From Shigella phage SH7, in sequence record KX828711: a stretch of DNA of 64,000 nucleotides. One strand, 5' to 3'. Within the stretch, counting starts at the first letter, position 1. Each line of letters starts with the position of its first letter. The translations under genes were made by a program, and so were the position numbers. Shown here one piece after another: positions 25,440 through 39,210 of this stretch. The notes beneath the pieces were generated by a model. The model did no database searches. It was not told where the DNA came from and saw only the letters and a list, made by a program, of their open reading frames with translations.

Positions 25440-25977
25440 TTACTATTTCCAAAAGTTTATTATTTTTAAGGTAATTAGCCTTTTCTAGGACTTCAGAAGC
25501 ATATTTAGAACCAGCTTTAACATTCCATCCCGAATTATAAGAGGATATTGCTTTTCTTATATCGCCCTTATGTATATTTAACCAATAAGAAAGTTCAATG
25601 TACGCCCAGGAAGCTGAATTGGATCGTTTATTCAACATTCTTTTTATTTCAGCATCGGTCATATTATAACCAAGTTCCTTAACTCTTGCTCGCATAGTAG
25701 GCAAATAATTTTGGAACATTCCGTAGGCGTGATGCTTTGGTTTAGATTTTAAATTAACTCCGCCAGAGCTTTCTTGCCATAAAATAGCAGCCATTATATG
25801 ACCTAATCCGCTCTTGTGGATATTTTTGTGTGTTTTATATTTTCCATCCTTAGAAAATTGTTCCCCGAATTGATACGCGTAACGCATGTTATCGAGTTGG
25901 ACATTACTGAAAGTATGCTCGGAGCTATGTGCCATCATTGAAATGGCCAATAGACCAGCGAGTAGTGCTTTTCTCAT
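25432..25977 (-). CDS. secreted lytic transglycosylase-like protein (SLT domain)
   Basis: 181 aa; signal peptide; family-1 motifs E-S (ILWQESSG), GMFQ, YNSG. Confidence 0.7.
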   Translation of the reverse strand: MRKALLAGLLAISMMAHSSEHTFSNVQLDNMRYAYQFGEQFSKDGKYKTHKNIHKSGLGHIMAAILWQESSGGVNLKSKPKHHAYGMFQNYLPTMRARVKELGYNMTDAEIKRMLNKRSNSASWAYIELSYWLNIHKGDIRKAISSYNSGWNVKAGSKYASEVLEKANYLKNNKLLEIVND

Positions 25978-25984
25978 GCTTACC

Positions 25985-26446
25985 TCATTGAGTTTTAATT
26001 ACTGCTTTAGAAGCCTTTCCTGGTAAACGACGACTGTTGATAATTGCCATCCTACATTGAAGTGACGGGTCTTTGAACTTCTCGTTAGGTTTACAAACTG
26101 TAAATCCAAGCCAAAGATTTCCATCTGTGATTTCTAAACGTCCAGGACGATATTCAACCCCATCAATAAAATCCTCGTCAATGTCAGGACGCGGAGGCAT
26201 TCTCAGGAATTCATTAACTTCTAAAACATGGTCTTTTATTTTATGGAATAATTCAAAAACGTATGTCTCATCAATCTCCCGTTGAATTGCACGATCAAGA
26301 AGATGTTGAGAATATTTTAGATGAAACGATGAGACCCCTGCTGCTTTTGATGCCTCACGAATCTCATTGTTAATTTGACGAAACTCCGACTCAAAGTGAC
26401 GACGAAGCTTATTTCGACGGATAAAAACTTCAGTGTTGATAGTCAT
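25985..26446 (-). CDS. regB: RegB site-specific endoribonuclease
   Basis: 153 aa; size and position match T4 RegB; sequence agrees with recollection. Confidence 0.8.
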   Translation of the reverse strand: MTINTEVFIRRNKLRRHFESEFRQINNEIREASKAAGVSSFHLKYSQHLLDRAIQREIDETYVFELFHKIKDHVLEVNEFLRMPPRPDIDEDFIDGVEYRPGRLEITDGNLWLGFTVCKPNEKFKDPSLQCRMAIINSRRLPGKASKAVIKTQ

Positions 26447-26473
26447 GTTATTCTCCTCTTAACTGATAGAAAA

Positions 26474-26503
26474 ATTATACCACAGTCAAGAGGAAAAGTA
26501 AAC
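26474..26503 (-). promoter_or_regulatory. early-type promoter (GTTTAC..TATAAT)
   Basis: Reverse complement GTTTACttttcctcttgactgtggTATAAT upstream of regB. Confidence 0.55.
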
Positions 26504-26505
26504 AG

Positions 26506-26784
26506 TTATTCTTTAAATCTAATCAATTTATTCATAGACTTTGAAACTTCGGCACGAACCTCATGTAGATTTTTGAGCTGTTCAAGACGCTGCGTATAGT
26601 AAGCAATTTCATCTTCTTCGAGACAGTCCTGCGAATCTTCTTTAAGATAACGTGCATAGTCCTGGAAAGCGTTACGGATTACTTCCTGGAAGTCATCAAG
26701 ACTTTGAATTTTCTTAGGAGCAGCAGATACACGACGAGGGGCAGTATAATACTCATAACCAAACCCTGCGCTTAATTGAGCCAT
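26506..26784 (-). CDS. hypothetical protein
   Basis: 92 aa from the Met whose ATG overlaps the upstream stop (TAATG). Confidence 0.5.
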
Positions 26785-27050
26785 TAGTATTTTTCCTCTG
26801 GTTGGAACACTGCACGACAAGCCCACATACTGGCTTCTTTGAGTTTCGTTTTAGCAATAGTTAACTGATCGAGGCTTTCAGCATAATTCTTCGCGAATTC
26901 ACAGTCTTCACAATTATCTAGTGCTTCCCAGAATTCATCGTATAAAGCGTCAAAGATAAGTCCTAAACGAACTTCAGCGTCTTTGATAGCATTCACTTTA
27001 CCGATTTTCTCTTCAGTATGTGGCTTATAACCCTTAATGTCTTCAATCAT
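26784..27050 (-). CDS. small acidic helical protein; possible Vs.4/Acb2-position protein
   Basis: 88 aa from the Met with GAGGAAG RBS; second gene upstream of regB, where T4 vs.4 lies; assignment by synteny only. Confidence 0.4.
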
Positions 27051-27264
27051 ATTTAACTTCCTCACCAGTACATAAATCATATTCAACTAAACGAATAGGT
27101 TCATGAATGCCATATCCCTGAACAGAAATTTCTGTCGTAGGATAAATTCCACTAATATCACCCATATTCCACGCTTCATTAAATTGCTGTTCGCCTGAAT
27201 TACTAAACCATTCTGCGAAAGCATTTAGCACATCTTTAGAACCTTCAATAATTATCTTTGCCAT
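27043..27264 (-). CDS. hypothetical small protein
   Basis: 73-aa ORF; start overlaps the upstream stop. Confidence 0.5.
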   Translation of the reverse strand: MAKIIIEGSKDVLNAFAEWFSNSGEQQFNEAWNMGDISGIYPTTEISVQGYGIHEPIRLVEYDLCTGEEVKYD

Positions 27265-27626
27265 TACAGACTCTCAGTAAAGGTACGAGCGATAACGTCG
27301 CGCTGCTGTTCCGGAGTCAGAGAGTTAAAGCGAACTGCATAACCGGATACACGGATGGTCAGCTGCGGATATTTTTCCGGATGCTTAACTGCATCTTCCA
27401 GAGTTTCACGACGCAGAACGTTAACGTTCAGGTGTTGACCACCTTCAATTTTAACTGTAGGTTGTGTTTCAATTTCAATTTCACGGGCGTGCAAACCATA
27501 GAAAATTTCTGGGTCTACAAAAGAGTCCTCTTTAAAGGTTTTAGAGACAATAATTCGCGCTTGAATACCATCTTCAAAATAAATAGTACCTTTATGCGTG
27601 CCTTCAAGAATTTGATATGCTTTCAT
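27264..27626 (-). CDS. autonomous glycyl-radical cofactor (GrcA/YfiD-like spare-part protein)
   Basis: 120 aa; C-terminal glycyl-radical fingerprint [17 protein letters not shown]. Confidence 0.8.
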
Positions 27627-27633
27627 ATAAACC

Positions 27634-27963
27634 TCAATTAGAAAATAAATTTATCCAAGATTGTTCTTTAATTAAAAATGGCTCAGAATCATATGCCATT
27701 AAACTTTGCGTAATTAATCCTTTAAAAGGTCCATCAATAAATTCCATGGTAAAATATGGAATTTTATTCATTAGCCGTGCATTAGGAGCCGTGCACAAAA
27801 CTCTGCATCCTTTGAATACGCCTTTTTGTAATTTGTATTGCTTAGGATAAAATTCACTTAAAATGTTATTTTTTGCCAAAATTTCAAAATGATTCACCAA
27901 TTTATTTTTAATAGTTTTTGGTGAAAAATAAAGATATTCAAAAAGTTGCGCATCTGTCATCAT
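27634..27963 (-). CDS. hypothetical protein
   Basis: Start at internal Met pair with ATGA overlap to the upstream stop. Confidence 0.5.
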
Positions 27964-28499
27964 TGCATTCCGATTACGAAAAACTGTGGACGAGTAATAC
28001 CACCAATACAACATTTAATATTACAGCAGCAGTGTACAGTGTCAATATGGACGCTATAAATCTTATCCATATCAGGAGATTTGACAGGCTCATCAATTAT
28101 ATACAAAATTCGCGAAAGCGATAAACCTCTGAACTTGCTTCCTTTATTACCAATAAAACTGCGCACAGAATCAGTAAATAAACGAAAACGTATATCATCA
28201 TTAGAATAACGCGAAAATTCCTTTTTAATGTTATTTGCAGAAATTTTAGCGTAAGCTGAAGTATTAGAAAGAACAATAACTGTTCCGCCATCATACAGCC
28301 AATTAGCAGCAAAGTTAGTCACAGCAATTGATTTACCGGATTGACGTCCACCATCTAGTCGAAGTGTGCAATACTGTTTAAGTAATTCTTCAAATGGCGG
28401 AATATATTCGTTTTTACAAATTTCTTCTACTCTAGCATCAGAATGGTGTGTAAAAGCATTCATCAGGGATAGATAAGGACCAGTTAAAAATGTTCTCAT
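27960..28499 (-). CDS. small P-loop NTPase with Cys-rich C-terminus
   Basis: 179 aa; Walker A GGRQSGKS, Walker B ILYIIDEP, C-terminal HCCCNIKCC. Confidence 0.55.
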   Translation of the reverse strand: MRTFLTGPYLSLMNAFTHHSDARVEEICKNEYIPPFEELLKQYCTLRLDGGRQSGKSIAVTNFAANWLYDGGTVIVLSNTSAYAKISANNIKKEFSRYSNDDIRFRLFTDSVRSFIGNKGSKFRGLSLSRILYIIDEPVKSPDMDKIYSVHIDTVHCCCNIKCCIGGITRPQFFVIGMQ

Positions 28500-28639
28500 T
28501 TCTTCTCTCTAAGTTTGGGCCATTCCGTGGCGCATGAATTGTCCATTTCTGTATTTACCCATTACCGCGCTTGGGCTCGACCTTATTACAGGTTGGCGGG
28601 AATCCCTCATAGAATCATGAGGTCCAGGTTGTTCCCATA

Positions 28640-29113
28640 TTATTTGAACGATTTAACGTACTGAATAGAACCTTTACTATTCACAAAGGCAATTTTACCA
28701 TTTTTGTTATACATAGTAGCAGTACGTTGATAGCCATAAGTTTGTTTACCAGATTGATAACCAACTAATGCGAAATTATCTTCACCCATTTTATTCTGTT
28801 TAGCGCGAATGCGTTCATGACCATGTGCCATAAGAACCTTAGCATCACCGGTTGCAATGGATCGACGAGTTTTTTCATCTTCAACTGTATTAACAAAGTC
28901 GTCAAATGAATCAAATTTAGCATGAGATTTATTATACAGTTTTCCATCTACTGCATAATTATATCCCTGTACATCCATCTCAACTTCTGTACCATCATCC
29001 AGTACAGCAGTGATTTTCTGTCCTTTTTTAAATTTCAAAAGATCAGTAAAAGATTCAGCAATAATTTGAGAATTAATAGCTGCTTCAGTAATAAATTCTT
29101 GATAGGTTTTCAT
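28640..29113 (-). CDS. internal head protein (capsid-targeting-sequence protein), IP locus
   Basis: 157 aa; N-terminal MKTYQEFITEA matches the T4 IP capsid-targeting sequence with an LxE protease site. Confidence 0.7.
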   Translation of the reverse strand: MKTYQEFITEAAINSQIIAESFTDLLKFKKGQKITAVLDDGTEVEMDVQGYNYAVDGKLYNKSHAKFDSFDDFVNTVEDEKTRRSIATGDAKVLMAHGHERIRAKQNKMGEDNFALVGYQSGKQTYGYQRTATMYNKNGKIAFVNSKGSIQYVKSFK

Positions 29114-29129
29114 GTGTTTCCTTTAATTT

Positions 29130-29447
29130 TTATTCTTTAGGGAAGTTTTTAGAATATGCATCATAAAGCTTATTTCCAATACGGCGGAAAACTCTAGCCG
29201 CAAAACGATTTTCTGGGTTTTTAATCATGATTTGCATCATATAAGTACCCGCGTCAGAAAGAGCTTCTTCATAGTACCCGTTAATTTCTTTAAGAGTCCT
29301 ACGTTTACCACCAGGACCATCAACAGTGATTTTCCATTTACCTGTAGAAGTGCGACTTGGCGGCTCAACTTGTTCAATCCAGATATAACCGCCTTCTACA
29401 CGTTGTCCTGCAGCAGATTCTGCAATAAATTCTTGATAGGTTTTCAT
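29130..29447 (-). CDS. internal head protein (capsid-targeting-sequence protein), IP locus
   Basis: 105 aa; N-terminal MKTYQEFIAES capsid-targeting sequence; between the IP gene and lysozyme e. Confidence 0.7.
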   Translation of the reverse strand: MKTYQEFIAESAAGQRVEGGYIWIEQVEPPSRTSTGKWKITVDGPGGKRRTLKEINGYYEEALSDAGTYMMQIMIKNPENRFAARVFRRIGNKLYDAYSKNFPKE

Positions 29448-29501
29448 GTGTTTCCTTTAAATATTTTAATTAGTAATTTATCTATTCAAGTAACTGTGAA
29501 T

Positions 29502-29531
29502 ATACTATCACAATTCCAAGAGAAAGTAAAC
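29502..29531 (-). promoter_or_regulatory. early-type promoter (GTTTAC..TAGTAT)
   Basis: Reverse complement GTTTAC..18 nt..TAGTAT upstream of the IP genes. Confidence 0.5.
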
Positions 29532-29535
29532 AGCT

Positions 29536-30504
<969 letters not shown>

Positions 30505-34968: not shown

Positions 34969-35319
34969 TTAATATTCTTTTAAAGCATCAATCTGTTCAC
35001 GACGTTTACGCCATAAATCAATTGCTTCATACGCAGATTCAGCATTTCGAATTGGACGGCATTTATATAAAGACTTGTGATTTTGATATTGCGTAGATAA
35101 CGGAATTTTATCTAAAAGGTCTTTACGTTCAAAGTATTCGTAACCATCTAAGCCAAATGAACGATTTTTGAGAAATTGCCAATGACCATATTCGTTTTCG
35201 ACATAAACATAATCCGCGTGTTGATAAAGCAAATTAATTACACGTTCAGAAATAATAGTGTCATTGTGATTAAAATAAAATGTTAAATCATGAACTACTA
35301 AATAAACATTACCTTTCAT
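34969..35319 (-). CDS. hypothetical protein downstream of tRNA-Arg
   Basis: 116-aa ORF beginning 17 nt after tRNA-Arg with a GAGGA RBS. Confidence 0.5.
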   Translation of the reverse strand: MKGNVYLVVHDLTFYFNHNDTIISERVINLLYQHADYVYVENEYGHWQFLKNRSFGLDGYEYFERKDLLDKIPLSTQYQNHKSLYKCRPIRNAESAYEAIDLWRKRREQIDALKEY

Positions 35320-36389: not shown

Positions 36390-36454
36390 TGATGATAGAG
36401 GGTATTAATCAGTGCGATATGAGTTAATAATAACAAATAATTCTTAAAGCATAT

Positions 36455-37750: not shown

Positions 37751-38447
<697 letters not shown>

Positions 38448-39161: not shown

Positions 39162-39210
39162 ATGTTTCTCCTCAAATTTAGTTAAGATTATAACACATGA
39201 AACTGAAGCA

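Follow-up and report, generated by a model that had tools for sequence, protein, structure and literature searches.

The closest described system is the Vs.4 protein of phage T4, which is Acb2 (NP_049728; PDB 7UQ2). Crystal structure, AUC, and ITC analyses showed that the T4 Vs.4 hexamer holds three 3′3′-cGAMP molecules in pockets that are each formed between two protomers (PMC10097602). In these pockets, Y8 and F82 make stacking contacts with the purines, while Y8, H11, K23, and R79 provide hydrogen bonds and salt bridges (PMC10097602). The Kd of T4 Vs.4 for 3′3′-cGAMP was about 31 nM (PMC10097602), and Cao et al. obtained about 84 nM for the binding of cGAMP by T4 Acb2 (PMC10312549). Mutants of T4 Vs.4 at the pocket and interface sites cannot block the activation of the phospholipase CapV by cGAMP, and on CBASS cells with mutant Cap2, the titre of a T4 vs.4 knockout was reduced about 50-fold (PMC10097602). 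T4 Acb2 binds cyclic dinucleotides only; neither cA3 nor cAAG was bound in ITC or native gel analysis (PMC10312549). It also binds the decoy 2′3′-c-di-AMP (Kd about 62 nM; PMC12657218). By sequestering 2′3′-c-di-AMP, T4 acb2 is necessary and sufficient for triggering Panoptes (OptSE), and Panoptes escape mutations, such as F82C, map to acb2 (PMC12657218).

Three further proteins were used for comparison. Acb2 of Pseudomonas phage PaMx33 (p26; Huiting et al. 2023, Cao et al.) belongs to the same family, with the same fold and the same action as a hexameric sponge, at about 24% identity to the T4-type protein (PMC10312549). The Tyr/Lys cyclic-dinucleotide pocket is shared, such that Y11/K26 of PaMx33 Acb2 align with Y8/K23. 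However, PaMx33 Acb2 contains an additional pocket, R67/T74, in which cyclic trinucleotides are bound; the T4-type protein, with D61/T68 and an unkinked helix, has no such pocket (PMC10312549). Tad1 (Thoeris anti-defence 1) has the Pfam 'Acb2/Tad1 hairpin' domain in common and is a sponge of immune nucleotide signals (PMC10680739). It binds gcADPR signals and cyclic oligonucleotides, whereas the protein analyzed here is T4 Acb2 itself. Acb1 (T4 gene 57B) is an unrelated anti-CBASS protein, which degrades cyclic nucleotides enzymatically, in contrast to Acb2, which sequesters them; T4 encodes both Acb1 and Acb2 (PMC10312549).

The vs.4 gene and its product

We analyzed a stretch of 64,000 nucleotides, hereafter the window, in which the gene and its ribosome-binding site were placed as follows.

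26784..27050, minus strand: vs.4 / acb2 coding sequence, 88 codons and TAA stop, from the ORF, its translation, and 88/88 identity to T4
27057..27063, minus strand: Shine-Dalgarno sequence GAGGAAG, 6 nt 5′ of the vs.4 ATG and within the 3′ end of vs.5

The vs.4 frame begins with ATG at 27050 and ends with TAA at 26786-26784, giving a product of 88 aa. In the mechanical ORF list, the longest open frame extends to an upstream TTG at 27086, which would give 100 aa. The ATG was preferred over this TTG because the Shine-Dalgarno sequence, the T4 annotation, and the crystallized construct all agree. The T4 record X04567 carries a ribosome_binding_site annotation beneath the matched Shine-Dalgarno region, and the crystallized Vs.4 construct comprised residues 1-88, thus beginning at the ATG (PMC10097602). 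The product of 10.2 kDa contains 19 Asp and Glu against 12 Lys and Arg residues, and its calculated pI of 4.66 indicated an acidic protein. The ORF, the GAGGAAG sequence, and this pI therefore agreed with the preliminary description, which had reported a small acidic protein of 88 aa from a Met supported by a ribosome-binding site.

Next, we compared the product with known proteins. It was identical at 88 of 88 residues to T4 NP_049728 and, likewise, to chain A of PDB 7UQ2, 'Vs.4' (88/88, E 1.9e-57). The Pfam family PF24729 (Acb2/Tad1, hairpin domain; Acb2_Tad1_hairpin) was matched with 71.4 bits and E 7.1e-20, well beyond the curated cut-off of 27 bits, over residues 7-83 and the whole 58-position profile. 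A match was also obtained with PHROG 717 (E 2.3e-32), which supplied the 198 Vs.4 homologues of Jenson et al. 2023 (PMC10097602). In a phmmer search against the PDB with E up to 10, PaMx33 Acb2 (8H2J, 8H2X, 8IXZ, and others) was matched only weakly, at E 0.026, although the alignment was in register, pairing Y8 with Y11 and K23 with K26. Membership of the wider Acb2 family was therefore assigned from the Pfam and PHROG profiles and from the identity to T4 Vs.4, not from this weak pairwise match. The vs.4/Acb2 identity had previously been guessed from gene order, and alignment to T4 Vs.4/Acb2 had been named as the check, absence of Acb2 similarity being what would refute it. The opposite was found; full identity to T4 Vs.4, together with PF24729 and PHROG 717, confirmed the guess. 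Taken together, the ORF is almost certainly vs.4 (acb2) from a Tequatrovirus, a T4-like phage, and encodes a hexameric cyclic-dinucleotide sponge against CBASS; none of our results spoke against this reading.

The residues whose roles have been described for T4 (Y8, H11, T12, K23, L29, F33, A66, A73, S74, A77, R79, and F82; PMC10097602) are all present in Vs.4 here. They include the complete cyclic-dinucleotide pocket, which consists of the stacking residues Y8 and F82, the polar residues H11, K23, and R79, and S74. The hexamer-interface residues L29, F33, A66, A73, and A77 are likewise all present; these residues have been assigned to the T4 Vs.4 interface with mutational support (PMC10097602).

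Gene neighborhood and expression signals

The position of vs.4 was determined relative to the following neighbors.

25985..26446, minus strand: regB endoribonuclease, the anchor for the gene count; Pfam REGB_T4 E 8.8e-69, same position in T4
26506..26784, minus strand: vs.3, 92 aa from the ATG at 26784; 97.8% identical to T4 Vs.3, PHROG 2037
27043..27264, minus strand: vs.5, 73 aa; PHROG 1986
27264..27626, minus strand: vs.6, GrcA/YfiD-like autonomous glycyl-radical cofactor; Pfam Gly_radical E 2e-18

Six consecutive minus-strand ORFs upstream of regB correspond to Vs.3, Vs.4, Vs.5, Vs.6, Vs.7, and Vs.8 in the T4 order. The preliminary description had counted six ORFs as the vs.3-vs.8 series, with vs.4 as the second, and this count was correct when compared with the T4 annotation. 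In tblastn against T4, Vs.3, Vs.5, Vs.7, and Vs.8 showed 88-99% identity (99.1% for Vs.7 and 95.9% for Vs.8), and Vs.6 was assigned from position, length, and family matches only. T4 has the same 88-aa protein at the same place, flanked by vs.5 and vs.3 on the upstream side of regB, with the same start codon, the same ribosome-binding site, and the same TAATG junction with vs.3.

In this junction, the vs.4 stop and the vs.3 start share bases. On the other side, the vs.5 stop TGA (27045-27043) is located 8 nt inside vs.4, among its opening codons (ATGATTGA). The overlaps of vs.5, vs.4, and vs.3 form an arrangement typical of coupled phage genes, which suggests that the three genes may be translationally coupled. 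In contrast to the overlap observed here, the T4 reference vs.5 (L002 5382..5558) is frameshifted and shorter. It has a 1-nt deletion relative to the present phage and T4_ev151, its 58-aa product matches the present vs.5 in two frames, and it ends 36 nt upstream of vs.4. T4 is the odd one out for vs.5, owing either to a real frameshift or to an old sequencing error. In three more distant relatives (L007, L008, and L009), vs.6 lies directly upstream of the Vs.4 homologue with no vs.5 between them.

The surrounding genome differs from that of T4, being that of another Tequatrovirus with no denV and with other internal-protein genes. A homologue of denV (endonuclease V) was not detected across the 64-kb window by tblastn at E ≤ 1e-3. 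Between vs.8 and the lysozyme gene e (28640..29447, minus strand), there are two internal-protein-like genes of 157 aa (phrog_3155) and 105 aa (phrog_3966); both products start with MKTYQEFI, and the genes occupy the place of denV-ipII-ipIII of T4. The vs.8 frame also varied. An in-frame TAG at 28511-28509 divides the 219-aa Vs.8 of T4 into two minus-strand ORFs, namely 28509..28610 (33 aa) and 27960..28499 (179 aa, with its own ATG), and T4_ev151 is frameshifted within the vs.8 stretch that is split here by the TAG. The sequence upstream of vs.8 (28500-28640) has an unusually high GC content and is conserved at the level of DNA. Its fold z-score of 0.14 gave no structure signal for a hidden RNA, and an Rfam scan of 26000-29600 with E up to 1 returned only a spurious match to a eukaryotic lncRNA (E 0.17).

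We then searched for expression signals. In 25900-29600, sigma-70-like promoter sites were not enriched (12 sites, compared with 12.8 expected from shuffles), and no promoter could therefore be assigned to vs.4. Terminator-like sites in the same region were not enriched either (2, with 1.8 expected). The MotA-box pattern TGCTTNA-N11-13-TANNNT was found 13 times in the whole window against 4.35 expected, a number reached by none of 100 shuffles; examples are 39185..39210 and 36427..36451, both on the minus strand. Such an excess would fit middle promoters of the T4 type at other places in the window. However, no such box was located on the minus strand from vs.4 to position 35206, leaving a dedicated middle promoter for vs.4 unsupported. 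From gene packing and orientation, vs.4 is probably transcribed early within the vs.8-to-regB string.

Distribution and conservation among phages

A tblastn search with Vs.4 matched 1234 phage records, and in 120 of these the protein was at least 99% identical. Among the phage records listed, most call the product a 'hypothetical protein'. The closest vs.4 DNA matches, at 99.6%, were those of the Tequatrovirus phages ESh18, SCS4, and 235Ecol030PP. Over the 20 kb searched, the best record was only about 96.5% identical, indicating that the window derives from a T4 relative, a Tequatrovirus other than T4. Codon comparison of vs.4 revealed 8 synonymous and no non-synonymous differences from T4, and 5 synonymous and no non-synonymous differences from T4_ev151. 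Differences limited to synonymous sites show that purifying selection has acted on a functional protein, and that the frame is not a chance one.

In an alignment of homologues ranging from 99% to 30% identity, K23, A66, E72, A73, M75-R79, V81, and P84 were invariant. Y8 was kept in seven of the eight aligned homologues, the exception being the T2 reference, and F82 was also kept in seven of eight, being replaced by Ala in the homologue with 30% identity. The latter comes from an E. coli phage of 46.7 kb, an unclassified member of the Caudoviricetes (L010). The vs.4 gene of the T2 reference NC_054931 (L004 133..393) has a 2-nt deletion in codons 7-8 (GGTTAT to GG--AT). The annotated T2 product begins with MKILRDKPHT and is without Y8; cGAMP binding is lost when this Tyr is mutated. 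The deletion reflects either a naturally occurring inactive allele or an error in sequencing. Escherichia phage PNJ1809-36 (Phapecoctavirus, Stephanstirmvirinae; L005 55..324) encodes a Vs.4 homologue that is 78% identical to the T4 type. The presence of a homologue outside Straboviridae suggests horizontal exchange of the sponge gene.

Alternative readings and expected role in infection

Hexamer formation, the binding of ligands, the inhibition of CBASS, and the triggering of Panoptes are taken from the literature on the identical T4 protein; the present analysis contributes sequence identity, family membership, key residues, purifying selection, and gene context. There is a small chance of a further, undescribed ligand or role of Vs.4 in the present Tequatrovirus, either another immune or decoy nucleotide or a sponge dosage set by the vs.5-vs.4-vs.3 coupling, which is broken in the T4 reference; the sequence gave no pointer to a further Vs.4 ligand or to dosage-setting coupling. 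It is improbable, to a somewhat greater degree, that the gene, though intact, is chiefly a burden to the phage or primarily serves some other role, for example with an undescribed nucleotide signal, CBASS inhibition being secondary. T4 Acb2 does bind 2′3′-c-di-AMP and several further cyclic dinucleotides (PMC12657218, PMC10312549). However, the measured specificity of the identical protein is for CBASS-type cyclic dinucleotides, and the strong purifying selection fits the known function. Furthermore, among Thoeris-binding homologues, the structurally characterized Acb2_43 uses different pocket residues (PMC12393519).

We regard it as very improbable that Vs.4 is a broad-spectrum Acb2 of the PaMx33/JBD67 type, which would also sequester cA3 and cAAG in a second pocket. 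Although Vs.4 is in the same family as PaMx33 Acb2 and its T68 matches the T74 position of that protein, this Thr is the only one of the two residues lining the three-fold trinucleotide pocket that is kept, and D61 is found at the position of PaMx33 R67. The identical T4 protein binds neither cA3 nor cAAG by ITC or native gel, and even its D61R mutant still binds no cyclic trinucleotide (PMC10312549). In T4 Acb2, the lining helix is unkinked, and Y37, A57, L60, D61, and T64 would clash with a trinucleotide (PMC10312549); these five residues are all present in Vs.4 here. Thus, Vs.4 falls outside the broad-spectrum, trinucleotide-binding subgroup. Finally, the probability is negligible that the vs.4 position is merely filled by a chance ORF or by some small acidic protein unrelated to Vs.4: where T4-like genomes vary, gene order by itself says little, and this neighborhood is variable indeed (denV absent, internal-protein genes unlike those of T4, and vs.8 and vs.5 frames varying between phages), but the 100% identity to Vs.4, the PF24729 match, the synonymous-only changes relative to T4, and the strong ribosome-binding site refuted it.

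We therefore return to the cyclic-dinucleotide sponge. For the present phage, the mechanism of Vs.4 would be taken as established by its identity to the T4 protein. Judged by its sequence, the gene is an already known one, a T4 allele at the protein level, with nothing novel. A second anti-CBASS factor was located in the window.

37754..38209, minus strand: 57B / Acb1 homologue, second anti-CBASS factor; tblastn with T4 57B, 99.3% over 152 aa

With this homologue and vs.4 both in the window, the phage has both known anti-CBASS factors of T4. In the proposed mechanism, the acidic 10-kDa Vs.4 would assemble as a hexamer, whose three inter-protomer pockets would clamp a cyclic dinucleotide such as 3′3′-cGAMP. 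Vs.4 would thereby sequester, without degrading it, the second messenger made by the CBASS cGAS-like enzyme of the host. This sequestration would leave the CBASS effector (e.g., the phospholipase CapV) inactive, and the phage could complete its cycle. The T4-type pocket geometry would exclude cyclic trinucleotides, a gap presumably covered by the Acb1 of the phage. In Panoptes hosts, the same binding would be a liability, as sequestration of the 2′3′-c-di-AMP decoy would release the toxic effector.

Accordingly, Acb2 should make the phage resistant to CBASS systems of the cGAMP type and to those using other dinucleotides, Acb1 being a second factor against CBASS, and sensitivity to Panoptes decoys is expected. 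For annotation, entries of this protein now called 'hypothetical protein' can confidently be named acb2.
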